A DNA stretch of 64,000 bases. Source: an uncultured Gemmatimonadales bacterium (lineage in GTDB: Bacteria > Gemmatimonadota > Gemmatimonadetes > Gemmatimonadales > GWC2-71-9). A program made the position numbers and the translations under genes. The notes beneath the pieces are model-generated. The model was given only the letters and a program-made list of their open reading frames with translations, ran no database searches and was not told the origin of the DNA. Shown here one piece after another: positions 5,357-48,855 of this stretch (position 1 is its first letter; every line of letters begins with the position of its first letter). The stretch lies in NCBI GenBank assembly GCA_963729985.1, contig CAVSPJ010000008.1, forward strand, positions 652,705 through 716,704, in the 5' to 3' direction.

Positions 5357-5408
5357 AGACGCCGGCCACCGCTGTACCCTTAGGAGATCTCCTCGACGGA
5401 GTCTCCCC

Positions 5409-5939
5409 GTGATCTGGTTTGATAGTTGGAACAGCGTGGGCCGAGTCGCCGTGACCGCAGTGATGGCCTACGCGGCCTTGCTCTTGTTTCTCCGGCTCTC
5501 CGGAAAGCGTACCCTGTCCAAGTTGAACGCATTCGACCTGGTCGTAACGGTTGCCCTTGGTTCCACCCTCGCGACCGTGATTCTCTCGAAGGACATTGCG
5601 TTGGTGGATGGGCTGCTCGCGCTGGCCTTGCTGATCGGCCTGCAATATGCCGTGGCCTGGCTCAGCGTGCGGGCGACGGCCTTTCACAGACTGGTCAAGA
5701 ACGAGCCGACCTTTCTCTTCTACGAGGGCACCTTCCTCGACGTTGCCTTGCGCCGTGCGCGGATAACACCCGACGAGGTTCTGGCCGCGATCCGTGGCCA
5801 GGGCGTCGAGGGCTTGGGCGACGTTCGCGCGGTCGTGCTCGAGACGGATGGTACGCTCAGTGTGGTCCGTGCTCGTGGGGCGCGTCCACTCGACTCGGCC
5901 TTGTCTTCGGTGGCGGAGCCCTCGGAGAACCTTGCCTGA
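5409..5939 (+). CDS. DUF421 (YetF-like) membrane protein
   Basis: ...LFLRLSGKRTLSKLNAFDLVVTVALGSTLATVIL... GTG start. Stop TGA lies inside GCCTGAC. Confidence 0.75.
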   Translation: MIWFDSWNSVGRVAVTAVMAYAALLLFLRLSGKRTLSKLNAFDLVVTVALGSTLATVILSKDIALVDGLLALALLIGLQYAVAWLSVRATAFHRLVKNEPTFLFYEGTFLDVALRRARITPDEVLAAIRGQGVEGLGDVRAVVLETDGTLSVVRARGARPLDSALSSVAEPSENLA

Positions 5940-6024
5940 CCCGCGCATGCAGCCGAGAGGCCGGACTGGCGCCTGGCTCCCAGCGGGCGGAACCCTGCGA
6001 CTGGAGCTGCACAGACGCTTGCTG
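5934..6024 (+). repeat. attC site with degenerate right end
   Basis: R'' GCCTGAC plus the conserved left arm CCGCGCATGCAGCCG. The right arm CTGGAGCTGCACAGACGCTTGCT lacks a proper GTTRRRY. Confidence 0.5.
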
Positions 6025-6197
6025 GGGGCGGGCTCGCCGTCGATGTCAACGAGCAGAACGAGGCGGCGCTGGGTTTCTACAGAACGCTCGGGTTCTCAGT
6101 GACGGGTCGGTCGCCAACAGATGCCGGCGGCCGACCGTTCCCCATCCTCCACATGGAACGCGCAGCGCTCAGCGCGCCGATGAAACGTCTCAGGTGA
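6024..6197 (+). pseudogene. C-terminal fragment of a GNAT acetyltransferase
   Basis: Frame-3 translation ...GGGLAVDVNEQNEAALGFYRTLGFSVTGRSPTDAGGRPFPILHMERAA... has no N-terminal half and no start codon. Confidence 0.6.
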
Positions 6198-6238
6198 TGG
6201 GCCAACGGTCGGCGGCTAGCAGTTACAGAGGGGAAACG

Positions 6239-6784
6239 ATGGAGCGCAGACCGTCCAAAGCTGAGATCGCGGCGGCGGTCGGCACTACGATTCCGGATCT
6301 GATCAGCCCCGGACTCGCGGTGCTCTTCTGCGGGATCAATCCCGGTCTCTACTCTGGCGCCACCGGCCATCATTTCGCTCGACCGGGGAATCGTTTCTGG
6401 CCGACACTTCGCGCGGCGGGCCTCACGGACCGCCTCGTGCGCCCGTGGGAAGAGCATCGCCTCCTGGAGTACCGGCTGGGCATCACCAATCTCGTTGCCC
6501 GTGCGACGGCAACGGCCGCGGAGCTTGAGCCAGACGAACTGCGGGCCGCGCGTACCAGGCTTGAACGGAAGGTCCGTCGCTACCGCCCCAGAGCGGTGGC
6601 CGTGCTCGGGATTGGCGCCTACCGGCTGGCGTTTGGCAGTCCTAGAGCTGCCTTCGGTCGCCAGGAGATGTTGCTCGCTCGGGCCGCCCTCTGGGTATTG
6701 CCCAACCCGAGCGGTCTGAATGCGAATTACCAGCTCCCCGACCTGGCGCTGGCCTTCGGCGAGCTCCGGGATGTTGTTCGTTAG
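6239..6784 (+). CDS. mug: G/U mismatch-specific DNA glycosylase (Mug/TDG, UDG family 2)
   Basis: ...LFCGINPGLYSGATGHHFARPGNRFWPTL...GITNLVARAT...LPNPSGLN. AGAGGGGA is the SD upstream of ATG 6239. Confidence 0.85.
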   Translation: MERRPSKAEIAAAVGTTIPDLISPGLAVLFCGINPGLYSGATGHHFARPGNRFWPTLRAAGLTDRLVRPWEEHRLLEYRLGITNLVARATATAAELEPDELRAARTRLERKVRRYRPRAVAVLGIGAYRLAFGSPRAAFGRQEMLLARAALWVLPNPSGLNANYQLPDLALAFGELRDVVR

Positions 6785-6882
6785 GCAGCCGGCCCGAGCC
6801 TCACTACTGGGGTGCCTTGGGCGAACGAATCGCCTCCTCGCCATCATGAAGGCCGCCGCGCCGAAGCCGAGGCCTTAGGCAC
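6780..6882 (+). repeat. atypical attC-like junction
   Basis: GTTAGGC (6780-6786, containing the mug stop TAG) and CTTAGGC (6876-6882) are in direct orientation. No RYYYAAC was recognised. Confidence 0.3.
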
Positions 6883-28209: not shown

Positions 28210-28786
28210 TCACCCTTCGGCGCCGTCAGGCGAAGGCGGCCCCTGCCCGGTGCGAGCCAACCCATCCATAATCACGTTTCGGCCCCTGACACCGGTGGAC
28301 CTGCCACTGCTGCATCGATGGCTCGCCCGGCCGCACGTCGCCCGGTGGTGGACTCCCACGCCGACCCTGGTCGAGGTGGAGGAAGAGTACGGACCGCTGG
28401 CGAACCACAGGTCGACGACTCGGCCCTATATCGTGCTTGGCGATGGCGCGCCCATCGGCTTCATCCAGTCCTACGCCGCGCTGGGCTCGGGCGACGGATG
28501 GTGGCCCGAGGAGCACGACCCGGGTGTACGGGGCATCGACCAGTTCCTGGCCGATCCCGCGCAGCTGGGCCAGGGAGTCGGCACTCGGATGGTTCGCGCG
28601 TTCGTGGAGCGGCTGTTTGCCGATGCCGCGGTGACTCGAGTGCAGACCGACCCGTCACCGGAGAACCGGCGCGCCATCAGATGCTACGAGAAGTCCGGGT
28701 TTCGGGCCGTGGCAGAGGTGGACACGCCCGACGGCCGCGCATTGCTGATGGTGTGCGACCGGGAGCTTGGGCGTGTAAAGCCGTAG
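28199..28786 (+). CDS. aac(6'): aminoglycoside 6'-N-acetyltransferase, AAC(6')-Ib-like GNAT
   Basis: IGFIQSYAALGSGDGWWPEEHDPGVRGIDQFLADPAQLGQGVGTRMVRAFVERLFADAAVTRVQTDPSPENRRAIRCYEKSGF closely parallels the AAC(6')-Ib sequence as I remember it. Start is GTG 28199 or GTG 28250. Confidence 0.75.
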   Translation: MRPDHPSAPSGEGGPCPVRANPSIITFRPLTPVDLPLLHRWLARPHVARWWTPTPTLVEVEEEYGPLANHRSTTRPYIVLGDGAPIGFIQSYAALGSGDGWWPEEHDPGVRGIDQFLADPAQLGQGVGTRMVRAFVERLFADAAVTRVQTDPSPENRRAIRCYEKSGFRAVAEVDTPDGRALLMVCDRELGRVKP

Positions 28787-29157
28787 GCGCGAAGGCCGGA
28801 GTGGGCGGGAGCCCCCCTCCCGCGGAGGATGTGCCCGGCTTTCTGCGCCAACGCGCTTCCCATCGCGCAGGGACCTCTGACGGGTGGGGGGCGACTACGG
28901 CGAGAGTCTTAACCCTGCTTCATTGCGATCCAGATCACAGCCGACCCCTCGAAAGTCCCCGATATTCGCCTGGCCCTTTTTCCAGGCCCAGCCGGGGACC
29001 TATGCTGGTCCCGTCAGCGCCGGGGCATCGTGGCACACCTTCCTCCGTGAGGACGCTTACGACAACCGCTCCTTCAACCTCTCGGGCACGCGACCAGGGC
29101 CCCGAAGATCCCCAGTCGCTCGGATTGGTGGAACACACCCTCGTGGGTGGGGGCGAG

Positions 29158-32100
29158 ATGGGGGCGCTCATGCGGGCGCTGGATTGGTCCCGCACGCCGG
29201 TGGGGCCGGTGGAACATTGGCCCCAGAGCCTCCGAACCGCCCTCAGCATTCTGCTGGACTCGGGCTACCCGATGTACATCGCCTGGGGAAGCGAGTTCAC
29301 CCAGTTCTACAACGATGGGTACCGTCCCATTCTCGGCGCCACCAAGCACCCCGCGGCCCTGGGCCAAGGTACCGCCGAGTGCTTCGCCGAGATCTGGGAC
29401 TTCATCGGGCCGATGTTCCAGCGGGTGTTGCGCGACGGCGAGGCCACGTACCTCCAGGATCAACTCCTGCCTCTGGACCGGAACGGCTACGTCGAAGAGT
29501 GTTACTTCACCTGTTGCTACAGCGCGATCAGGGAGGAGTCGGGGCGGCCCGGCGGGGTGTTCGTCACCGTGATCGAGACCACCGAGCGGGTGCTGAGCGA
29601 GCGCCGCTTGCGCATCTTGCGCGAGTTGGCCCTGGCGGCGGGGCGCGCCCAGCAGGACGCCGCGGCGTGCCGGGCGGCGGGCGAGGTGCTGGATGGCAAC
29701 CCGCAGGACCTGCCGTTCGCGGCGATTTACCTGCTCGACGACCGCCGCACCGTGGCCCGGCGGGCCGGGACCAGCGGCCTCCGGGAGGGTGACCCGGCGT
29801 GGGAGGCGCTTCCCCCCCAGGTGTCGCTCGCCCCGGGGGCCGACGCTTGGCCGCTCAGCGCCGCGGTGCTGAGCGCGACGTCCACCCGGATGCGGGCCAT
29901 CGATATGGGCATCCGGGAGCTTCCGGGCGCCTCGGTCTGGGGGGTCGCCCCGGAGGAGCTCGTGGTCACCCCGCTCGTTCTTCCGGGGCAAGCTGCATCC
30001 GCCGGCGTCCTGGTCACGGGCATCAATCCACGCAAACACCTCGATGAGCAGTACGAATCGTTCCTGGGCCTGGTCGCGGGTCAGGTGGCCGCCGCGGTGG
30101 CCGAGGCGCGGGCGTTCGAGGAGGAGCGCCGCCAGGCCGAGGCGCTGGCCGCTCTCGACCGGGCCAAGACCGCCTTCTTCAGCAACGTAAGCCACGAATT
30201 CCGGACGCCGGTAACCCTGTTGCTCGGCCCCCTGGAGGACGCGCTGGAGGAGACCTCGGCGCCGCTGATCGGGCCGCAACGGGAGCGGATCGAGGTGGCC
30301 CATCGCAACAGCCTGCGGCTGCTCAAGCTGGTCAACACGCTGCTCGACTTCTCCCGGATCGAGGCCGGCCGGGTGCAGGCCTTCTACGAGCCCACCGATC
30401 TCGCCGGGTTCACCGCCGATCTGGCGAGCGTTTTTCGATCCGCGATCGAGCGGGCTGGACTCCGTCTGGTGGTGGACAGCGTGCCAGCTGGTGATCCGGT
30501 CTACGTGGACCGCGACATGTGGGAGAAGATCGTCCTCAACCTGCTGAGCAACGCCCTTAAGTTCACGCTCCAGGGCGAGATCACGGTCGGTCTGCATCAG
30601 GTGGACGACAGGGTCCGCCTTACGGTGACGGACACCGGCATCGGCATCCCCGCCGAGGAGCTGCCCCGCGTCTTCGAGCGGTTCCACCGAGTGCGCAGCA
30701 CCCAGGGGCGGACCCACGAGGGAACGGGGATCGGACTGGCACTGGCTCAGGAGCTGGCCCGCCTGCACGGGGGACGGATCGAGGTGGCCAGCGAGCCTGG
30801 CGCAGGCACCCGGTTCACCGTCACGATCCCCACCGGGACCGCCCACCTTCCTCGCGACCAGATCGGCAGCCCCGGCACCCTGGCCTCGACGGCCCTGGGC
30901 GCCGCTCCCTTCATCGAGGAGGCGATGCGTTGGCTGCCCGGCGACACCGAGCGGTCCCTGTCGGCCGGCCGGCCGGCCGACGACGAGCTCGCGGAAGGGA
31001 AGGCCGTGGGGACCCCTCGAAGCCAGCGGGCTGATCCGGCCACCAGGATCCTGGTGGCGGACGACAACGCGGACATGCGGGATTACGTCACCCGGCTGCT
31101 CAGTGCGCGGTGGACCGTGCTCGCCGTCGCCGATGGGCGCCAGGCACTGCGCGAAGCGCAGGCGCGGCCGCCCGATCTGGTCATCAGCGATATCATGATG
31201 CCGGGGCTGGACGGTTTCGAGCTGCTGGCCAAGCTTCGGGCCGACCCTCGCACTCGCACCGTGCCGACCATCCTGCTCTCCGCGCGGGCCGGCGAGGAGT
31301 CGCGCATCGAGGGACTGGAGGCCGGTGCGGACGATTATCTGGTGAAGCCGTTCTCTGCCCGCGAGCTCACCGCGCGGGTGGAGGGCACCCTGGCCCTGGC
31401 CCGCAGCCGGCGGGATGCGGAGTCGGCGCTGAGGGAGAACGAGGAGCGGTTCCGGCTGGCGCTTCGTGCGGCGCAGGGCGTGGTCATTGATTGGAACGTG
31501 GTGAATGGCGATGTGCTCTGGAGCGACGGCCTCCGGCTTTTTTTCGGGTTCGATCCGGCGGAGGCGGGAACCGACATCGGCCAGGCCATGGGCTGGTGGG
31601 AAGCGCAGCTCCATCCCGACGACCGGGAGCGCGTTCGCGACTCGTTCGACGCCTTCCTCGATAGCCGGGACGAGGGATGGATGATCGAGTACCGATTCCG
31701 CCGCGCCGACGGCCGCTGGGCAACAGTGCGCAATCACGCCTCCGTCGCCCGGGACGCCGACGGCCGGCCCCTCCGGGTGATCGGCTCCCTGCTCGACATC
31801 ACCGAGCTCAAGGGCGTGGAAGAGCGGCTCCGGCAGTCGGCCAAGATGGAGGCGGTCGGCCGCTTGGCTGGCGGGATGGCGCACGACTTCAACAACCAGC
31901 TCCACGCCCTTACCGGTTTCGCGAATTTCGTCGCCCGGGACAGTGGGCTGTCGGGCAGCGCGCGAAAGGATCTGGTGGAGATTCAGAAGGCGGCCGACCG
32001 GATGGCGAGCCTCACCCGCCAGCTGCTGGCGTTCAGCCGCCAGCAGATCCTGGCTCCCGAAACACTCGACCTCAATCAGGCCCTCGCCGACACGCAGTCA

Positions 32101-33027
32101 CTCCTCCAGCGGCTGATCGGGACCAACATCGAGGTGTACCTCGAGCTGGCGCCCGGGCCGATCTGGGTCCGCGTGGACCGGGCCCAGCTCACGCAGGTGT
32201 TCCTCAACCTGTCCGTGAATGCACGCGACGCCATGCCGCAAGGCGGGCGCTTCTCGCTGCGGACCGGTGTCCGCCGGATCGACGCCGGAAGCTCCGACGC
32301 GCCACCGGGAATGTCCGCCGAGCCGGCGACCTATGCTCAGCTCACCGTGACCGACTCCGGGACAGGGATTCCCGCCGAGCATCTGCCACGGATCTTCGAG
32401 CCCTTCTTCACCACCAAGGAGGTGGGGGAAGGGACCGGCCTGGGCTTGGCCACGGTGCACGGCATCGTCGCCCAGAGCGGGGGTCACATCTGGGTGGAGA
32501 GCGAGCCGGGACGCGGCACCACGTTCACCCTGCTGCTGCCCCTGGCGCCGGTGCCGCGGCCGTCTCCCCCGCAGACCGGGCCGACGACTCACCCGAGCCG
32601 CGGGCCCCGGGCGCGGGTGCTGGTCGTGGAGGATGAGGAAGCGGTCCGGGCCACCGTGGTGCGGGGGCTCGCCGAAGAGCACTACGACGTGCTCCAAGCT
32701 GGTAACGGGCGCGAGGCGCTGGAGTGCCTGGAACAGGAAGGTGGCCGGGTGGACCTGGTGGTGAGCGACGTGGTCATGCCGGCACTGGGAGGCGCCAAAC
32801 TCGCCGAACGGCTGGCGGAGCAGTACCCGGCGCTGCCGGTGATCTGGATGTCCGGCTATCCCCGGGAAGCGGCGTTCGCGGGGCACGAGCCGGGAGAGGC
32901 GAATTTCTTCTTGCAGAAGCCGGTGCATCTCGACCACCTGGCCGACACGGTAGCCCGGGCGCTGCAACGGTCCGGCCCACATTCCGCCGAGACCAGCGGA
33001 GGGCCATCCACGGCCCGCCAGGGCTGA
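29158..33027 (+). CDS. double hybrid sensor histidine kinase (sensor/GAF-like - HisKA/HATPase - REC - PAS - HisKA/HATPase - REC)
   Basis: MGALMRALDWSRTPVGPVEHWPQSL...; H-box 1 SHEFRTPV; REC1 ILVADDNADMRDY...DIMMPGLDG; H-box 2 MAHDFNNQL; REC2 VLVVEDEEAVR...DVVMPALGG. The first 280 codons of the track ORF overlap aac(6') and look non-coding. Confidence 0.85.
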   Translation: MGALMRALDWSRTPVGPVEHWPQSLRTALSILLDSGYPMYIAWGSEFTQFYNDGYRPILGATKHPAALGQGTAECFAEIWDFIGPMFQRVLRDGEATYLQDQLLPLDRNGYVEECYFTCCYSAIREESGRPGGVFVTVIETTERVLSERRLRILRELALAAGRAQQDAAACRAAGEVLDGNPQDLPFAAIYLLDDRRTVARRAGTSGLREGDPAWEALPPQVSLAPGADAWPLSAAVLSATSTRMRAIDMGIRELPGASVWGVAPEELVVTPLVLPGQAASAGVLVTGINPRKHLDEQYESFLGLVAGQVAAAVAEARAFEEERRQAEALAALDRAKTAFFSNVSHEFRTPVTLLLGPLEDALEETSAPLIGPQRERIEVAHRNSLRLLKLVNTLLDFSRIEAGRVQAFYEPTDLAGFTADLASVFRSAIERAGLRLVVDSVPAGDPVYVDRDMWEKIVLNLLSNALKFTLQGEITVGLHQVDDRVRLTVTDTGIGIPAEELPRVFERFHRVRSTQGRTHEGTGIGLALAQELARLHGGRIEVASEPGAGTRFTVTIPTGTAHLPRDQIGSPGTLASTALGAAPFIEEAMRWLPGDTERSLSAGRPADDELAEGKAVGTPRSQRADPATRILVADDNADMRDYVTRLLSARWTVLAVADGRQALREAQARPPDLVISDIMMPGLDGFELLAKLRADPRTRTVPTILLSARAGEESRIEGLEAGADDYLVKPFSARELTARVEGTLALARSRRDAESALRENEERFRLALRAAQGVVIDWNVVNGDVLWSDGLRLFFGFDPAEAGTDIGQAMGWWEAQLHPDDRERVRDSFDAFLDSRDEGWMIEYRFRRADGRWATVRNHASVARDADGRPLRVIGSLLDITELKGVEERLRQSAKMEAVGRLAGGMAHDFNNQLHALTGFANFVARDSGLSGSARKDLVEIQKAADRMASLTRQLLAFSRQQILAPETLDLNQALADTQSLLQRLIGTNIEVYLELAPGPIWVRVDRAQLTQVFLNLSVNARDAMPQGGRFSLRTGVRRIDAGSSDAPPGMSAEPATYAQLTVTDSGTGIPAEHLPRIFEPFFTTKEVGEGTGLGLATVHGIVAQSGGHIWVESEPGRGTTFTLLLPLAPVPRPSPPQTGPTTHPSRGPRARVLVVEDEEAVRATVVRGLAEEHYDVLQAGNGREALECLEQEGGRVDLVVSDVVMPALGGAKLAERLAEQYPALPVIWMSGYPREAAFAGHEPGEANFFLQKPVHLDHLADTVARALQRSGPHSAETSGGPSTARQG

Positions 33028-38239: not shown

Positions 38240-38361
38240 ATCGAGTCGGTGCGTCCTTCGTCGACGGCATTTCCGCCGAATCCCTTCGACTGGCGTAACG
38301 CCAAGAAAAAGAACATGTTGCAGCTGGATTACTGCTCGTCACGGTGTCCTTCGGAGGTCCC

Positions 38362-39061
38362 GTGATCATCTCGGTCAAGAACCACTCCAAGATTCCCGAC
38401 CAAGAGGTTCTCGCCGCCGTTCGCGCGGTCAACCGCCAGATCGCGGAGGACTTCGATCCCTACTGGGACCTCGGCGGCACGCTCCGCCTCGCCGACCGCC
38501 GGTCGCGGCGGCTCGAGGCGGATGCCATCATCCGGCTCGTTCCCCACGGCCATGACTACCACTGGAGCCCAACCGGCATCCCCGAGGCCCATGTCTTCAC
38601 CGAATTGTCCCAGCTGTCGCGGGAGTCGGTTCCGTGGCTCACCTGGACCAACTCTCTCTCGCACGAAGCCCTCGAGCTGATCGCCGATCCCCAGCTCAAC
38701 ACGCTGGTGCGCGGCCCCCACCCGGTCCACCCCAAGCGGAGCGTGTTTCATTACCGCGAGGTCTGCGATCCGGTCCAGAGCGAGACGTACCTGATCGACG
38801 GGGTCACCGTTTCGAACTTCGTTCTGCCACACTACTACAACGCCATGGGTGAGTCCGGCGGGCGAAACGACTTTCTCGGCACGGGCGTGCCGGCGTTCCG
38901 CTGGAACGAGAACGGCATCATCGGGTTTTGGGACCCCCGCCAGGGGGCCCGGGGCCGCTACGTCATGTGGCCTCGATACAACCAAAGCCACCTGGTCACC
39001 AAGTACCGCCTGGCAAAGGGGACTTCCGGCCGCCTCTATCGATACGCGAGCCCGAAGGTCA

Positions 39062-39078
<17 letters not shown>
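38362..39078 (+). CDS. hypothetical protein
   Basis: GTG 38362 after GGAGG. 238 aa containing ...SLSHEALELIADPQLN... No family recognised. Its 3' end overlaps the kinase start by 17 nt. Confidence 0.5.
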
Positions 39079-41937
<2,859 letters not shown>

Positions 41938-41941
<4 letters not shown>

Positions 41942-43188
41942 ACGGACTGGGCCGATGGCCGCACCAGGAGGACCGAGGGCAGGGCCGGGTCGGCCAAGCC
42001 GAGATAGAAGTAGCCGATGCCGGCAAGCCCGATCATCAGCGACGGGTTGCTGCCGCGGCGCACCCCGCAGGGCCAGTCGGCCGGTGCACCCGCGAAGCGC
42101 GCCGCGCCGGCTGCTGCAGCAGCCCACACCAGCTCCCCGATGTCGGCGTGACCGAGCACCTGAGACGCGTAGCGGAGAATCTCGCCCAGCCCGGCACGTC
42201 CGTGACAGAGGGAGAAATCGCCGTCGACCCAGCGGTCGCGGTCGGCCAGGGCGGATCGGGTGGTCCGCATCGCCGCTTCCGCATCGGCTCGGCAGGTGTC
42301 GAAGCCAAGCTCGACGGCGCGCAGGCGGGTGAGCCCGATGCCCGGCGCCCCGTGGCACCATGCCTCACACACCGGCGCGTCGTCTCCGTCCTCCTCGCGG
42401 AAATCGGGCCAGTTGTCCTCCGTGGGGCGAAACCACCGGCTCTCGTACCGGAAGGCCTGATGTGCCGCCTCGATCATCTCGCGGTCGCCGGTGGCGTTGC
42501 CGAGCTCGAGCAGCGACCACCCGATCCCCGCGGCGCCATGCGCCAGGCCGGTGAGCGGGCGCACCGCCTCCACGCCACCGAGGCGCGCTGGCCAGGACCA
42601 TCCCTCGTCGCCTCTGGTGGCGACCGCGACCGTTCGGCGGCCGAGCCTCATGGCCAGGTCGCGGAACTCGGGGCGGCTCAGCCCCTCGGCCAGTGCCAGG
42701 AGCGGGCCGATCGCTCCCGTGCCACCCGAGATGAGGTCGACCACGAGCTCGCCGTCCGCCGCGCCAGCGAGGCGGCCGAACATAGCGGCGGCGCCGGCTT
42801 CGAGGTCGGAGCGCTCCAGCGACCGGCCGATCATCGCCGCGGCATACGCGATGCCCACCTGCCCGGTATAGAAACCGGCCCGAGCCGGTGGCGGGATGGT
42901 GTCGAGCCGGTCCAGCGCATAACCGATTCCGGCCAGCGCCGCGTCTCGCCACCGCCCGCTTCCCGTTCGCCGGCAGGCCTCGGACAGAAAGAGGGCCACA
43001 CCGCTGGTGCCGCCGTACAATTCCGGTCCCAGTGTTCCGTAGGTGAAATCCACCTGGTCGGACCCGTCCTCCACGTCCTGGGTCATGCCCATCCAGGTAC
43101 ACCGGTCGCCGTGACTGAAGGCCGTGTCGCAGAGGTGATCCGCGATGCGGGCCGACACCGCGAGCGCCGCCTGAGCATCGAAGGTCAC
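41938..43188 (-). CDS. LanC-like lanthionine synthetase C family protein (cyclase)
   Basis: Motifs GLAHGAAGIGW, EAWCHGAPGIG and FSLCHGRAGLG (Zn-ligand Cys/Cys-His pattern). The GTG start overlaps the upstream stop as GTGA. Confidence 0.8.
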
Positions 43189-44183
43189 CGCGAGTCCTCG
43201 TGGAGCGGTGCAAAGTCGTCCGGCGAGCCGGGGTTCAGGTAGATCCGGTCCAGATCATACCCGTCCCGCGCCAGCCGGGACGCTACCAAGGCGACGCGTT
43301 CGGGCCCCGAGCGAAGCGCGACGCACTCCGGGTCGGTGAGGATGCCGGCGAGCAGCCGGCCGCGGTGCTCGCCGAAGCTCGATCCGTCGCCCGGGTCTTC
43401 CGCGAGCCCGACCCCCGGAGCAATTCGTTTCACCAGCAGCGATACCGTGGATCGCAGCCACGGTGCGATCTCGACATGGACCTTCCGCAGGATCGGTCTG
43501 CCCTTCGGGTAATCGTCCCGGGCCAGGTAAAGCACCGCGGGATCGGTGCGATGGTAGCGCAGCGGCTCGCTGAGGACCTTGAGCTGGAATCCGACGCCGG
43601 CTTCGTTGAGGCGCCGGGTCATCAGGCCGACCAGCCGTTCCGCACCGGCGGGCGCGAGATGCCAGTACAGCCGGACCACGTTACCCGCGTCACGGGTATC
43701 GTCGGCGTTGCCGTGGGCGAGGTAGAAGCCCGAGGCCAGCTCGAAGTACTCTTTGGGGATTCGGACGGCGCCGCCCCGGCCGAGAGTGACGGAGCCGTCC
43801 ACCGGCCGGTACTCGCCGGAAGGGACCCAGAACCGGACTCCGTGGCGCTCGGCCACGATGCGGCTGTCAACCTCGATCCCTCGGGCGGTCCAGCCGGCCT
43901 GCCAGGTACCCGATCCCGAGTTCGCCGACGACAGCCGGTCCGCCAAGTCCCGCGCACCAACCCAGTCGGTGAAGCCTTGCGCGACCGCTCCTCGGGGCGG
44001 GACCCGGCAGTGGAGCGATGAGTAGATCTCCTCGGCGAGCGCGGCCGGCAGCGTGGACCCGGCCGCCGGGGAGGCGCCGCCGAGGGACAACTGGTGCCGC
44101 CGCCCCAGGAGGGTGAAGGAGGAAGGCGGGTCGACCCCCACCGAATGGAGTGCGGCGCGGAGATCCTCGCTGGCGAGCGTCAC
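43185..44183 (-). CDS. HopA1-like protein (putative phospho-Ser/Thr lyase partner of the kinase)
   Basis: ...VVRLYWHLAPAGAERLVGLMTRRLNEAGVGFQLKVLSEPLRYHRTDPAVLYLARDDY... fits my recollection of the 'T3SS effector HopA1 family' pattern. GTG 44183 overlaps the kinase stop as GTGA. Confidence 0.55.
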   Translation of the reverse strand: MTLASEDLRAALHSVGVDPPSSFTLLGRRHQLSLGGASPAAGSTLPAALAEEIYSSLHCRVPPRGAVAQGFTDWVGARDLADRLSSANSGSGTWQAGWTARGIEVDSRIVAERHGVRFWVPSGEYRPVDGSVTLGRGGAVRIPKEYFELASGFYLAHGNADDTRDAGNVVRLYWHLAPAGAERLVGLMTRRLNEAGVGFQLKVLSEPLRYHRTDPAVLYLARDDYPKGRPILRKVHVEIAPWLRSTVSLLVKRIAPGVGLAEDPGDGSSFGEHRGRLLAGILTDPECVALRSGPERVALVASRLARDGYDLDRIYLNPGSPDDFAPLHEDSR

Positions 44184-45355
44184 ACTGGCTCCCGACCGTT
44201 CCCACCAAGGCCGAGGACGACGGCGCGCGCCTCGTCGGGTCTCAAGAACATGTTGAGGCCGAGCTGGAGAATGGCCGCGGCGCTCCGGGGCATGTGTGCT
44301 TCGGCCTGGCTCCACTCATAGGCCGACTTGAGAAGCCGGGTGGCCACATGGCCCGGCAGACGGTCCAGGAAGGAGTTGGCTTCCATCCCAGTCAGGCGGG
44401 CCGCGGCGAGGTAATCGGCCCAGAAGTCGCGGTGGGCCGCATAAAGCCCTGGAATCACGCTGCCCAGGAGCGCCGCCGCTGCCTCGGGGGTGGTCCCGTC
44501 GGTCAGTTCCAGTCCCAGCACCGCCTCCGTGAGAGTTGCGTGGAGGACGGAACCGACATCCCACGCAGGATCGCCCAGCTGGGCGAGCTCCCAGTCCAGC
44601 AGGATTATCCCGGCCGGAGTGCCCGCGCCGTCCGTTTGGAGCAGGACGTTGTTCCACTTGAAGTCGCCGTGAACGAGCCGGGTCGGCCGCCACTGGTTCC
44701 GCAGCCGGTCCAGGGCCGCCATCGCGGCCGGCTGTGCCTGAATGGCCCGGATCACGTCGAGCTGTGCCGGTGCGAGCTCGCTCAGGCTCGCGGGTGCCGG
44801 GCGGGCGATGTCGAACACCCAGGGCGCCGCCTGGGGCAGCTTCGTCCCGATATGCCGGTCGAGCCCGACCGGCAGGCGATGGCAGTCCGCCAAGGCGGTC
44901 GCCGCCATCCGGCGCGAGATCGCGAGGTAAAGTGGTGAGGCCTGGTCTTCCAGTACCTCGAGGCGGGTGGCCTCGGTGATCAGGTCGAGGACCAGGATGG
45001 AGCGCTCGGGATCGTAGTGGCGCCGGCGCGGAAACATGCGGCGGACTCCCGCCGCTCGGAGCTCGGTCGCGACCCAGTCATACAGAGCAGCCTCGATGGC
45101 GAGGGGGCCATCGGTACCGATCTCACCCCGTGGGGCTTGCTTCAGGAAGTAAGTCTGTCCCGGACCGCCGACCACCCTGAAGTTGCGGTTCCGACCGGGA
45201 ACCTCCTCGATCCGGAGTCCGTGGTGGACTATGGAGGCGAGATCGAGGAGGCCGAGATTAAGCAGGTAGGGTACGCTCGAGTCCAGGGTCAATTCCGGCC
45301 GCGACCCGGTGACAACCGCATGGGTGGGCCGGTTGTGCCCCGGACTCGATGCCAA
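44180..45355 (-). CDS. aminoglycoside-phosphotransferase (APH)/protein-kinase-like fold kinase
   Basis: Catalytic loop LVHGDFKWNNVLL and metal-binding ILLDWELAQLGDPAWDVG. The TTG start at 45355 is uncertain. Confidence 0.75.
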   Translation of the reverse strand: MASSPGHNRPTHAVVTGSRPELTLDSSVPYLLNLGLLDLASIVHHGLRIEEVPGRNRNFRVVGGPGQTYFLKQAPRGEIGTDGPLAIEAALYDWVATELRAAGVRRMFPRRRHYDPERSILVLDLITEATRLEVLEDQASPLYLAISRRMAATALADCHRLPVGLDRHIGTKLPQAAPWVFDIARPAPASLSELAPAQLDVIRAIQAQPAAMAALDRLRNQWRPTRLVHGDFKWNNVLLQTDGAGTPAGIILLDWELAQLGDPAWDVGSVLHATLTEAVLGLELTDGTTPEAAAALLGSVIPGLYAAHRDFWADYLAAARLTGMEANSFLDRLPGHVATRLLKSAYEWSQAEAHMPRSAAAILQLGLNMFLRPDEARAVVLGLGGNGREPV

Positions 45356-45386
45356 CAGTGATCCCGTGCGCCGGTCGCTCGGCGCG

Positions 45387-45578
45387 CTAGCAGGTCTTCT
45401 TGCCGGTGCCGCATCCCGGTCCGCGGCGGGTCGGCTTGGTCTTCGGCTTGGGCTTCTTGGTCGACTTCTTCTTCGCGCCCTTCTTCTTCTTGGCCGCCAT
45501 CACCGCCACGCCACCATCCTCGTCGCTCCAGTGCTGCGCCATCACGTCGCCCGAAAAGAATCTTGCCTCGTCGGTCAT
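45387..45578 (-). CDS. 63-aa candidate precursor peptide (acidic N-terminal half, Lys-rich Ser/Thr/Cys C-terminal half)
   Basis: MTDEARFFSGDVMAQHWSDEDGGVAVMAAKKKKGAKKKSTKKPKPKTKPTRRGPGCGTGKKTC*. GGGGAG lies 9 nt upstream of the ATG. Its stop codon lies 31 nt upstream of the kinase gene start (it is the first gene of the operon). Confidence 0.55.
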   Translation of the reverse strand: MTDEARFFSGDVMAQHWSDEDGGVAVMAAKKKKGAKKKSTKKPKPKTKPTRRGPGCGTGKKTC

Positions 45579-45832
45579 GTGGATGCGCTCCCCGGTTGGC
45601 CCGGTTGGAAGGAAACTGGCCGGCAAATCCGACGCCGTGCGTGGATAGTATGCGGCTGCGATCCGCCGCGCGCAATTCCGCGCGGCAGGGCTCGACAACC
45701 CACCCAGGGCCGGCGCCCGCTTGACCACCGCCGGTAATGCGCTTCTCGTTAGGAGAAGATCGCGAGTTCGCCGCGGGGGCGCTGGGAGGGCGGCATGCCA
45801 GGTGCGCGGTGCACTACTCAAAGGAGATACAC

Positions 45833-46120
45833 ATGGCCGACATTCGCCTTTTCACGAAGCCAGGGTGTCCTCACTGCGCGGATGCCAAGGCGTGGCTCGA
45901 GCAGCACGGGTGCGCCTTCGATGTGCTCGATATCACCAAGGACGTGGCGGTGCTGCGGGAGTGGCGCGAGCTCAGCGGCGGGGTGGGGGTTCCCGTCCTT
46001 GCCCACGGTCGCGATCTCGTCATCGGGTTCAGTCCGGAGCGCTACGGCGAGTTCCTCACCGCGTGCCGGCACACGACGAGCGTTGACCCGGCCGAGACGG
46101 AGGCTCAGCTCCGGGCCTAG
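45833..46120 (+). CDS. glutaredoxin-like (NrdH/Grx family) protein
   Basis: [26 protein letters not shown]...[21 protein letters not shown] is the SD. Confidence 0.8.
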
Positions 46121-47952
46121 TCGTGTGCGCCAAGCGCCCGATCCAGGTTATAGGCTGCGCTGATCAGGGCCAGGTGGGTGAACGCCTGAGGGAAGTTGCC
46201 CAGGGCCTCGCCGCTGGGCCCGGTTTCCTCCGCGAAGAGACCGACGTGGTTGGCGTAACCCAGCATCTCCTCGAACATGAGCCGGGCCCGGTCCAGCCGC
46301 TTGCGGTCCACCCTGCCGGCGCGGGTGAGGGCTTCGACCAGCCAGAAGGTGCAGATGTTGAAGGTTCCTTCCTCGCCTCGGAGGCCATCCCGCGTCTCTC
46401 GGGTATCGTAGCGGTAGACCAGACTGTTCGACACCAGGCCCCCCTGTTCCGGCGGGGCCAGGACAGCGTCCAGAGTCTTGAGATTCCGGGGGTCGCCCGG
46501 AGACAGGAACAGCACCAGCGGCATCATCAGGTTCGCCGCATCGAGCGTGGTGCTGTCGTATGACTGTACGAACGCCTGGCGTTCCTCGCTCCATCCCCGG
46601 CTCATGATCTCCTCGTAAATCTGGTCGCGGACCTTGAGCCATCGCTCCCAGTCGGCCGGGAAGGAGCGCTTCTGCGCCAGTCGGAGCGCGCGGTCCACGG
46701 CCACCCAGCACATGAGCTTGGAGTACACGAAGTGCCGCTGGCCGCCCCGCACCTCCCAGATCCCCTCGTCGGTGCGCTGCCAGTTGTCGCACACCCAGTT
46801 GACCAGACGCCGGAGGTAGCGCCACAGCTCGTAGGAGATCGGCACACCGTGTTTGTTGAAGAGGTACACCGAGTCCATCAGCTCCCCATAGATGTCGAGC
46901 TGGAGCTGGTCGTAGGCGCCGTTGCCGATCCGCACCGGACGGGAGCCCCGATATCCCTCCAGGTGGTCCAGGATCTCTTCATCCAGCCGATGCCGGCCGT
47001 CGATGCCGTACATGACCTGCAGCGTGCCTTCAGGGGACAGCTCCCGGCAGCGTGCCTCCAGCCACTCCATGAACTGTCCGGCCTCCTCGGTGAAGCCGAT
47101 GCGCAGAAGGCCGTAGATCGTGAAAGCGGCGTCCCGGATCCAGGTGTAACGGTAGTCCCAGTTCCGCTCGCCGCCTATGCCTTCGGGCAGGCTGCAGGTC
47201 GGAGCTGCTACGATGGCCCCGGTCGGCCGGAAGGTCAGCAGCTTCAATGCCAGCGCGGACCGGTGCACCGTCTCCCGCCATCGTCCGCGGTAGGTGCAGC
47301 GCGACAGCCACCGCCGCCAGTACTCCACCGTGCTGATGGTCAGCGCTTCGGCCCGGTCCTCCGATAGCAGCGCGTCGGGGCCGGTGCGCTCGTCCACCTC
47401 GCCCAGCACGAAGATGGCGGTTTCCCCGGCCTGCAGGGTGAACTCGGCTTCGACCCCGCGCGCGTGCCGCTCGAGGGGCAGGGAGGTGGCCAGAGCCACG
47501 CTGAGCGTCGCGGTTCGGAAACAGGCACCGGCCTGCGACACATCGGTGGCGTGCTGGTCCCGGGCATAGTTGAAGGCGGGGAAGCACTCGAGCCGGAACG
47601 TCATGGCGCCGCGAATCACCTGGACCCGACGCACCACCTGATGGGGTCGCTCGTCCATGGTGTCCAGATCCAACGGCATGAAGTCGATGATCTGCCCCAC
47701 GCCGTCGGGGTGGAGGAACCGGGTGACGAGGACGTTGGTGTCCGGCCAGTAGAATTGCTTGCGGCGGCTGCCGTCAGCCGCCGGTTGGATCCGGAAGTGG
47801 CCGCCTTTGCCGTGGTCCAGCAGTGCGGCGAAGATGCTGGGCGAGTCGAAGTGGGGGTAGCACAGCCAGTCGATAGAGCCGTCGAGGCCCACCAGGCCCA
47901 CGGTGTGAAGGTCGCCGATGAGTCCGTAGTTCTCGATGGGCTGGTACGACAT
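46117..47952 (-). CDS. glycoside hydrolase family 15 (glucoamylase/trehalase-like)
   Basis: [46 protein letters not shown]...[14 protein letters not shown]... Confidence 0.85.
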
Positions 47953-48348
47953 CGTGCCTCCTTCGAGGGCGGCGGGAGGTGGCCGGGCGGAAAAGAAACG
48001 TCTCCCCGGGAGCTTCGGATTGGTGTGAGACGCCGTCAGGCTGCGCCTTCCTCGGGAGACCGACCGCGCGACTGGCAGGTGCGGAGCATGGTCGCGATCC
48101 GGGTACGCAGGGCCGGCGGGGTCCGGACCTCGCGCAGGCGTCCCTTCAGTCTTTCGCCGGGATTGCGGGTCGATCCGACCGCAGCAGTATTGGTAGCCTG
48201 GAGCGCTCTAAGTCAAGGCTAGAGCTCCCGCCCGCCGGAATTACGAGGCGAGGAAGCTCGAGCGAGGGATTGATCGGAGGGAGACCGGCTGGAGGTCTCG
48301 CGGGTGGGTGCAGTGTCTCCTGAGTCAAGCACAGGCAAATCTATCGGC

Positions 48349-48855
48349 ATGGTGCTGAGCGCTAGCGTCGTCGACATTACCACCCTCCACGCCGACGCCA
48401 TCGTCAACGCGGCCAACGAGGCGCTGGCGCCCGGTGGGGGCGTCTGCGGCGCCATCCATCGCGCCGCCGGCCTTGAGCTGGCCCGAGCGTGCGCCCTTAT
48501 CGGCGGCTGCCCGACCGGCGAGGCCCGTCTGACGCCCGGCTTCGACCTTCCAGCCAAGTTCGTCATCCACGCTGTCGGGCCGGTCTGGTACGGAGGTGGC
48601 GCGGGGGAGCCGGAGTTGCTGGCTTCGGCGTATCACGCGGCCATCCGGCTGGCGGCCAGGTACGGTCTGCGCAGTATCGCGTTCCCCGCCATCAGCACCG
48701 GGATCTACGGGTACCCGCTCCAGCCCGCCACCGAGGTGGCGGTTGCCGCGGTTCGTCGGGCGCTGACAGCGGGGTCGAGTCTGGAGCAGGTCATCTTCGC
48801 CTGCTTCAGTCCGGAAGTCCTGCGAGCCTATCGCCAGGCGGGGATCACGGCGTGA
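48349..48855 (+). CDS. macro-domain protein (O-acetyl-ADP-ribose deacetylase-like)
   Basis: ...ADAIVNAANEALAPGGGVCGAIHRAAG...FVIHAVGPVW...SIAFPAISTGIYGYP. Confidence 0.85.
   Translation: MVLSASVVDITTLHADAIVNAANEALAPGGGVCGAIHRAAGLELARACALIGGCPTGEARLTPGFDLPAKFVIHAVGPVWYGGGAGEPELLASAYHAAIRLAARYGLRSIAFPAISTGIYGYPLQPATEVAVAAVRRALTAGSSLEQVIFACFSPEVLRAYRQAGITA

Follow-up and report, generated by a model that had tools for sequence, protein, structure and literature searches.

A putative class Vb lanthipeptide operon with a polycationic precursor in an uncultured soil member of the Gemmatimonadales

Introduction

What is made by a kinase, a HopA1-like lyase and a LanC-like cyclase when they are encoded together behind a small, lysine-rich open reading frame (ORF) in a bacterium from outside the actinobacteria? 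We address this question for a 64,000-nucleotide (nt) stretch of DNA, hereafter the window, from the metagenome-assembled genome (MAG) of an uncultured soil Gemmatimonadales bacterium. Our answer is that the four genes very probably constitute a class Vb lanthipeptide operon composed of a precursor peptide, the kinase LanK, the lyase LanY and the cyclase LanC. An earlier, sequence-only reading had placed the locus in a non-actinobacterial genome and had proposed a class V-type lanthipeptide system; the origin of the MAG bears out the first point, and the domains, catalytic residues, conserved operon and peptide described below lend support to the second.

Class V lanthipeptides are defined by LanK (PF01636) together with LanY (PF17914). 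In class Va this pair is accompanied by a kinase-fold LanX and a flavoprotein LanD, the product carries an aminovinyl-methylcysteine (AviMeCys) and LanC is lacking, and in class Vb there is a dedicated LanC and only (methyl)lanthionines are formed (PMC12291118; PMC11186320). Dehydration by LanK and LanY has been reconstituted for CaoA (PMC9486802). Class Vb rests, as later papers present it, on the study of SmoA with SmoC by Pei, Zhu, Sarksian, van der Donk, and Nair (JACS 2022; described in PMC11186320, PMC12291118), and in such accounts SpcC of Streptomyces pathocidini is given as a SmoC orthologue (PMC11186320; PMC12291118; PMC12328550). The LanK, LanY and LanC pathway was reconstituted for SmoA according to the descriptions of Pei et al. 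(2022) in PMC11186320 and PMC12328550. In 2024, mSmoA was said to be the only class Vb member so far (PMC11186320), and a 2025 review places class V in actinobacteria only (PMC12328550); we came across no description of a class V system from Gemmatimonadota in the literature searched.

The operon and its precursor peptide

The four genes lie in the same direction on the minus strand (Table 1). A 31-nt gap separates the stop codon of the peptide gene from the TTG start of the kinase gene, and two GTGA overlaps follow, one at 44183-44180, where the GTG start of LanY overlaps the stop of LanK, and one at 43188-43185, where the start of LanC overlaps the stop of LanY. This tight packing had been noted in the sequence-only reading, together with motifs in the kinase and in LanC, and we recovered the coordinates from the ORF list and the sequence, and the motifs from the translations. 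Because the start and stop codons overlap, the LanK, LanY and LanC genes are probably translationally coupled. The mechanical ORF of the HopA1-like protein extends to 44315; the GTG at 44183 gives a protein of the length found in homologues and in the called product P0001. A Pfam scan assigned one domain to each of the three large proteins.

The first gene encodes a 63-amino acid (aa) peptide of three parts: an acidic leader (aa 1-28, 45495-45578) with a net charge of -5, a Lys/Pro-rich linker (aa 29-47, 45438-45494) whose length varies among homologues, and a conserved core of 16 residues with two cysteines (aa 48-63, KPTRRGPGCGTGKKTC, 45390-45437). The 35 residues after the leader carry a charge of +16, and the description of this substrate as very unusual stands. 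The exact 63-aa product was not found in a large protein collection, in which the best match is 97% identical; because the exact sequence is missing there, the peptide was probably not called as a gene on its own contig. A search of the same collection returned homologues in 38 metagenomic clusters, every one of them named "hypothetical".

Residue conservation, counted over 29 intact members, is concentrated in the leader and the core. In the leader, M1, T2, E4, F8, G10, V12, M13, W17, E20 and G23 are invariant, and the C-terminal pattern KP(T/S)xxGPGC(G/Q)(T/S)xKKTC is nearly fixed, with Cys56, Cys63 and Thr62 invariant and positions 50 and 58 occupied only by Thr or Ser. Ser39, Thr40 and Thr47 vary freely, and the varying Lys-rich middle accounts for total lengths of 55-67 aa. 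Such conservation of Thr/Ser and Cys is the signature of a two-ring lanthipeptide core, for which Thr50-Cys56 and Thr58-Cys63 would be the simplest rings, although they could also be nested or overlap. A more distant peptide (L008) retains the Thr-x5-Cys spacing, as TRNRPGC followed by TTGPAC.

The small ORF is also a real gene by its nucleotide sequence. Codon changes relative to its homologues are mostly synonymous (in the core, 2-7 synonymous vs 0-3 non-synonymous), and an intact copy with a ribosome-binding site occupies the same place in seven Gemmatimonadota genomes (L003-L009), with GGGAG or GGGGAG at an equal distance from the start in L003-L007. The L001 copy is frameshifted in an AAG-rich run (L001:6620-6794). 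Frameshifts within the AAG-rich (Lys) run were also observed in the precursor copies P0153, P0155, P0157 and P0158. These frameshifted copies are most likely homopolymer or repeat assembly errors in long-read or short contigs. Automatic gene callers will often miss or truncate such a Lys-rich precursor.

The modification enzymes

The kinase carries the motifs HGDFKWNN and DWELAQLGDPAWDVG and is of the APH type, not PF00069. In an alignment with 15 homologues, K72, E88, H229, D231, N236 and D254 are invariant; we assign Lys72 and Glu88 to binding of adenosine triphosphate (ATP), His229, Asp231 and Asn236 to the catalytic loop, and Asp254 to metal binding. The best solved relative of the LanK profile is LxmK (9dk1_A, 1.1e-21). 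The predicted role of LanK is the phosphorylation of Thr/Ser in the core peptide.

The homology of the middle protein to HopA1-type lyases, on which the sequence-only reading depended, is apparent from its Pfam match, from its catalytic residues and from its best solved relative. R171, K202, R212 and Y219 are invariant among 22 homologues, with a spacing of 31, 10 and 7 against 32, 10 and 7 for R187, K219, R229 and Y236 of CaoY, in which Arg187, Lys219 and Arg229 were shown by mutagenesis to be required for eliminating the phosphate (PMC9486802). Among solved structures, LxmY is the best relative (9dk1_B; 5e-11 with the single sequence, 5.6e-32 with the profile), so that the LanK and LanY profiles each pick one chain of the same PDB entry, 9DK1, the lexapeptide dehydratase heterodimer LxmK-LxmY (PMC12141560). 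An AlphaFold2 model of LanY (predicted local distance difference test score, pLDDT, 89; predicted template-modelling score, pTM, 0.87) superimposes on LxmY with a template-modelling (TM) score of 0.73-0.78 at 27% identity, HopA1 being the next-best match; CuvL, ThurKC, SpvC and OspF are weak structural matches. Two homologues, P0101 (526 aa) and P0248 (500 aa, partial), consist of a HopA1-like lyase fused to a LanC domain (PF17914 and PF05147), and such fusions stand midway between split class V enzymes and fused synthetases.

LanC has its three motifs at residues 214 (GLAHGAAGIG), 277 (WCHGAPGIG) and 328 (CHGRAGLG), and H217, C278, C328, H329 and D151 are 100% conserved in 66 homologues. By analogy with NisC, we take H217 to be the acid/base histidine and C278, C328 and H329 to be the Cys/Cys-His zinc ligands; thus the ligands which the LanC assignment calls for are kept on alignment, together with the catalytic histidine. 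Both CHG motifs align with LicM2 (6st5).

Table 1. Positions of the operon genes and upstream elements in the window
Feature	Position	Strand	Evidence
Precursor peptide gene, 63 aa, MTDEARFFSGDVMAQHWSDEDGGVAVMAAKKKKGAKKKSTKKPKPKTKPTRRGPGCGTGKKTC	45387..45578	-	ORF, conservation; no Pfam/NCBIfam family
Shine-Dalgarno GGGGAG, 9 nt ahead of the precursor ATG	45588..45593	-	read directly
Palindrome GTCGGATTTGCCGGC in the 5' untranslated region (UTR), then CTTCC tract	45619..45633	-	alignment; terminator-like scan
Possible promoter TTGCGC-N17-CATACT	45645..45675	-	conserved in window and L003-L005; weak
LanK, putative APH-fold Ser/Thr kinase, 391 aa, taking TTG as the start	44180..45355	-	Pfam APH 7.2e-17
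LanY, putative HopA1-like phosphoSer/phosphoThr lyase, 332 aa	43185..44183	-	Pfam HopA1 3.2e-33
LanC, putative stand-alone zinc-dependent lanthionine cyclase, 416 aa	41938..43188	-	Pfam LANC_like 4.7e-48

Related loci and their precursors

One genome per species was scanned for related loci; 155 were confirmed, and the best 80 were fetched and analyzed. In these 80 loci the kinase, lyase and cyclase genes occur in the same order and on the same strand, the exceptions being missing matches to the kinase, where the upstream flank is shorter than 350 nt (L040, L044, L053, L060) and in L075, and to LanC, in L078 only. Chance falls far short of accounting for the arrangement. Identity to the window proteins drops in step for all three enzymes, from about 70/74/80% to 45/48/56% and then 35/42/46%; the three have evolved together. 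In L075, from a Bryobacteraceae bacterium, no APH-type kinase was detected, and the lyase gene is preceded by a gene (L075:69-2870, plus strand) whose 933-aa product, combining PD40 beta-propeller repeats with a protein kinase domain of eukaryotic type, may be an alternative partner for LanY and LanC or may just come from a neighboring gene.

The loci are distributed over Actinomycetota (27), Acidobacteriota (25), Gemmatimonadota (11), Chloroflexota (8) and Pseudomonadota (4), with one each in Myxococcota, Eremiobacterota, Verrucomicrobiota, Dormiibacterota and an unclassified bacterium, which puts 53 of the 80 outside the actinobacteria; the closest relatives of the window are Gemmatimonadales contigs. 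A protein search started from a Kitasatospora LanY added cultured myxobacteria (Archangium gephyra, Sorangium), Longimicrobium and Ktedonobacterales, and returned no Streptomyces entries. Thus, a cassette whose class had a single characterized member, from Streptomyces, as of 2024 is now seen in Gemmatimonadota, Acidobacteriota, Chloroflexota, Myxococcota, Pseudomonadota and candidate phyla.

BLAST clustering of flanking ORFs in the 80 loci left a single widely recurrent neighbor of the trio, a Cys-rich ORF upstream on the same strand (28 loci). With an iterated leader profile centered on the motif (A/E)xFLxGxI, an adjacent Cys-rich ORF on the same strand is detected in at least 46 of the 72 loci whose upstream sequence is 700 nt or longer, and its only three further matches in six frames of the loci all adjoin the trio. 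That a small ORF should accompany the trio elsewhere, as the sequence-only reading would lead one to expect, is therefore borne out. Across the flanks of the 80 loci there is no recurrent transporter, protease, LanD, reductase or LanX; a bare cassette of four genes is the norm in this family. In the window itself, the ORFs that were Pfam-scanned at 26-62 kb include no transporter, dedicated protease, LanD-type flavoprotein or reductase, nor does any lie within about 13 kb of the operon. The sequence-only reading had remarked on the absence of such genes; the absence holds, and it is usual in the family, not peculiar to this locus.

In the precursors of the family, the leader is often about 100 aa long and the Cys-rich cores differ greatly, and the range extends from the polycationic peptide of 63 aa to proteins of about 300 aa that are rich in Cys and Pro; the long-leader precursors of related loci match no Pfam or NCBIfam model. 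The FFSGDV of the window peptide aligns with FLxGxI, the invariant F8, G10 and V12 being motif positions, which is suggestive of a leader recognition shared between this peptide and the FLxGxI precursors.

Several kinds of precursor stand apart. In Solirubrobacterales, some Acidobacteriota and Verrucomicrobiota, the upstream ORFs of about 300 aa have a long leader followed by very long Cys/Pro/Thr/Ser-rich repeats (L014, L020, L022-L026, L031, L035, L041, L047, at about 5400-6800; L027, L062, L063); they offer dozens of potential sites for rings and would be exceptionally large for lanthipeptide precursors. In Chloroflexia (L071:927-1592, L072:5952-6629), the cores are tandem repeats, GGGGSFLCGG... 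and CGGHSFACGGQSFACGG..., a pattern suggestive of numerous identical small rings or of precursors with more than one core. Acidobacteriota loci contain small ORFs of two kinds ahead of the kinase gene (L039:6176-6325, L046:6214-6366, L057:6705-6932, L061, L066:6286-6450), one with a QRKYLRG-type leader and a SSWFWYCYPC core, the other rich in Lys at its N-terminus, with a conserved IPSVKRLxPVxxL segment and a core that is short and contains Thr and Cys. The Gemmatimonadales peptide, in which a motif leader is combined with a Lys-rich stretch, seems to mix features of both.

Comparison with known lanthipeptide classes

At the gene level, the window has the features of class V, namely a stand-alone APH kinase, a stand-alone HopA1-like lyase and an adjacent precursor with Ser, Thr and Cys, and also those of class Vb, a stand-alone LanC with zinc ligands within the cluster and no LanX or LanD in the 26-62 kb scan or in the flanks of the 80 loci. 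Every defining feature of class Vb open to testing in silico is thus present. The nearest counterpart is SmoA/SmoK/SmoY/SmoC, with the same stand-alone APH-type kinase, HopA1-type lyase and zinc LanC and likewise neither LanX nor LanD, and by this likeness the window product should bear only (methyl)lanthionine rings. The two systems differ in their hosts, Streptomyces in the one case and the phylum Gemmatimonadota in the other, and in their peptides: mSmoA has two overlapping rings and a C-terminal ring, whereas the window peptide combines a +16 tail rich in Lys and Pro with a two-cysteine core of 16 residues.

The class Va systems (lexapeptide LxmK/LxmY/LxmX/LxmD, cacaoidin CaoK/CaoY, pristinin, triantimycins, rosins) share the homologous LanK-LanY dehydratase. 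They differ by LanX, LanD and a C-terminal AviMeCys, and often by reductases and methyltransferases, none of which was found among the scanned ORFs at the window locus; class Va was rejected, as LanC is present in the operon and LanX and LanD were not found. The LanC of the window shares its fold, zinc ligands and catalytic histidine with class I LanC (NisC-type) and with the cyclase domain of LanM, the latter being the closest. However, the window lacks a LanM dehydratase domain and LanB, dehydration being assigned to separate LanK and LanY, and class II was rejected because the closest NCBIfam model, LanM, is matched at its cyclase half only (positions 545-932; 250.9 bits against a cut-off of 304). 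The class III/IV synthetases (LanKC, LanL) and OspF/SpvC would have in common with the window system a phosphorylation followed by beta-elimination and a related lyase fold. Class III/IV enzymes are single three-domain polypeptides with a eukaryotic-type kinase domain; three separate ORFs and an APH-type kinase led us to reject this assignment, and the NCBIfam LanL and LanKC models cover the cyclase part only, far under their cut-offs. Thioamitide pathways, with TvaC/TvaD-like proteins, YcaO/TfuA and a LanD-like enzyme, were set aside since no such domains occur in the scanned neighboring ORFs.

The sequence-only reading had described thioamitide and class V pathways alike as consisting of a kinase, a lyase and a LanC-like protein. 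The dehydration by kinase and lyase stands; thioamitides and class Va use no LanC, and the trio corresponds to class Vb (PMC11186320; PMC12291118). Nor can the locus be called unexplained, as it was there, since the set of LanK, LanY and LanC has already been published under that name. It is not a new system, and class Vb is barely studied. What is new is the host phylum, the polycationic precursor, and the wide spread of the family and the variety of its precursors outside the actinobacteria; the known chemistry is left unchanged.

Proposed pathway and alternative explanations

The chemical steps, ring topology, cleavage site of the leader and biological role given here are inferred from the features described above. 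In the proposed pathway, the 63-aa precursor would be bound via its acidic N-terminal leader, and LanK would phosphorylate Thr50 and Thr58, both of them conserved, and perhaps also Thr62, with ATP as the phosphate donor. LanY, probably forming a heterodimer with LanK like LxmK-LxmY, would then eliminate the phosphate to leave dehydrobutyrines, and the zinc site of LanC would activate Cys56 and Cys63 for Michael addition, giving two methyllanthionine rings at the end of a strongly cationic Lys/Pro-rich tail. The leader would be removed and the product exported by enzymes encoded elsewhere. As a default guess, the product would be a cationic antimicrobial or envelope-active peptide.

Several points weigh against this pathway. 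Firstly, the best NCBIfam model for LanK, the class V lanthionine synthetase subunit LxmK, is matched with 73.9 bits, far under the equivalog cut-off of 315, and LanY, like the 63-aa peptide, matches no NCBIfam model; both enzymes are distant relatives of the characterized ones. Secondly, the likeness to SmoK/SmoY/SmoC is one of enzyme set, as published descriptions give it. Thirdly, neither a protease nor an exporter was found near the operon in the scanned ORFs, and a leader profile built without Gemmatimonadales-type peptides misses the window peptide (E > 10). Moreover, the core is tiny, with two cysteines, and the Lys-rich stretch may be part of the leader, a spacer or part of the product. 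Finally, the host is an uncultured MAG.

A broader proposal, which we put forward tentatively and consider rather improbable in its entirety, is that the locus represents one facet of a LanK-LanY-LanC superfamily, large and as yet practically unexplored, in at least nine phyla, mostly of uncultured soil bacteria, with an uncatalogued FLxGxI leader type that often ends a leader domain of about 100 aa. According to this proposal, the Gemmatimonadales product would be a polylysine/proline tail capped by two small thioether rings, perhaps binding polyanions or the envelope rather than acting as a classical lantibiotic.

Of the alternatives that we considered, the one that survives best accepts the enzymes as described and differs in the fate of the peptide. 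The ringed polycationic peptide could stay in or on the cell, where it would bind polyanions (DNA, polyphosphate, envelope polymers) or act as a signal or morphogen like the class III peptide SapB, and would not be a secreted antibiotic. The lack of an exporter, immunity gene or protease in the operon, within about 13 kb of it or as a recurrent feature of the family is consistent with such a role, as are the +16 tail beside a -5 leader and the Lys-rich part, which tolerates insertions and deletions in the manner of a low-complexity binding tail. However, cationic peptides are typical antimicrobials, and many lanthipeptide clusters, especially those of class III and IV, use unlinked proteases and transporters. 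We regard a retained peptide as unlikely, yet deserving of mention.

It is far less probable that the trio acts on proteins, making or quenching dehydroamino acids at phosphosites like the eukaryotic LanCL, perhaps together with a neighboring Ser/Thr kinase, and that the small ORF is incidental. HopA1/OspF-type lyases do act on protein kinases in other settings (PMC9486802), and a Ser/Thr kinase with tetratricopeptide repeats (TPR), preceded by an ORF for an unknown protein, converges on LanC and is conserved in position in Gemmatimonadota L001-L008. On the other hand, the small ORF co-varies with the trio and retains exactly the residues that a lanthipeptide core needs, the very different Cys-rich precursors ahead of the trio in other phyla fit a peptide substrate, and a Ser/Thr kinase lies within 5 kb of the trio in only 15 of the 80 loci overall, outside Gemmatimonadota at about the chance frequency for kinase-rich phyla. 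Although high-GC DNA yields many spurious ORFs and the peptide was probably not called on its contig, a chance frame or a silent remnant is scarcely credible, given the conserved start codon and ribosome-binding site, the mostly synonymous changes, the 29 intact homologues with an invariant core, the three intact enzyme genes with complete catalytic sets, and the resemblance of the frameshifted copies to assembly errors.

We therefore retain the class Vb operon as the preferred explanation. Since it comprises four genes without accessory enzymes, it is an easy target for heterologous expression, and it offers a clean system for leader recognition by LanK, LanY and LanC and for the role of a lysine-rich lanthipeptide.

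Flanking genes and upstream elements

On the LanC side of the operon, an ORF for a 244-aa protein without a Pfam match (38344-39078, plus strand) is followed by the Ser/Thr-TPR kinase ORF (38849-41941, plus strand), whose true start is probably near 39065 and whose stop codon overlaps that of LanC by 4 nt. The pair is kept in L001-L008, and its C-terminal half is found in L021. This could be plain synteny or a regulatory link; we rejected the kinase as a part of the system, its conservation beside the operon being confined to Gemmatimonadota. At a distance of about 9 kb from the operon is a hybrid sensor kinase of 1569 aa (28318-33027, plus strand), whose domains are GAF, PAS, two sets of HisKA/HATPase_c and two receivers; nothing ties it to the operon.

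The genes on the peptide side are not conserved among the related loci. A glutaredoxin gene (45827-46120, plus strand) is divergent from the precursor gene at a distance of 248 nt, and beyond it are a glycoside hydrolase family 15 (GH15) gene (46117-47952, minus strand) and a macro-domain gene (48304-48855, plus strand). All three were rejected as cluster members, with counterparts in 0 of the 80 related loci, and because of this the operon is taken to end just upstream of the peptide gene.

A sigma-70 consensus scan of 41700-46200 gave no promoter-like site; the conserved element upstream of the peptide gene (Table 1) falls below its threshold and is a possible, weak promoter candidate. A terminator-like scan of the same interval gave five matches, among which only the palindrome in the 5' UTR looks meaningful. 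Its core columns are invariant in the alignment of the window with L003-L007, and it may be a regulatory hairpin or an operator.

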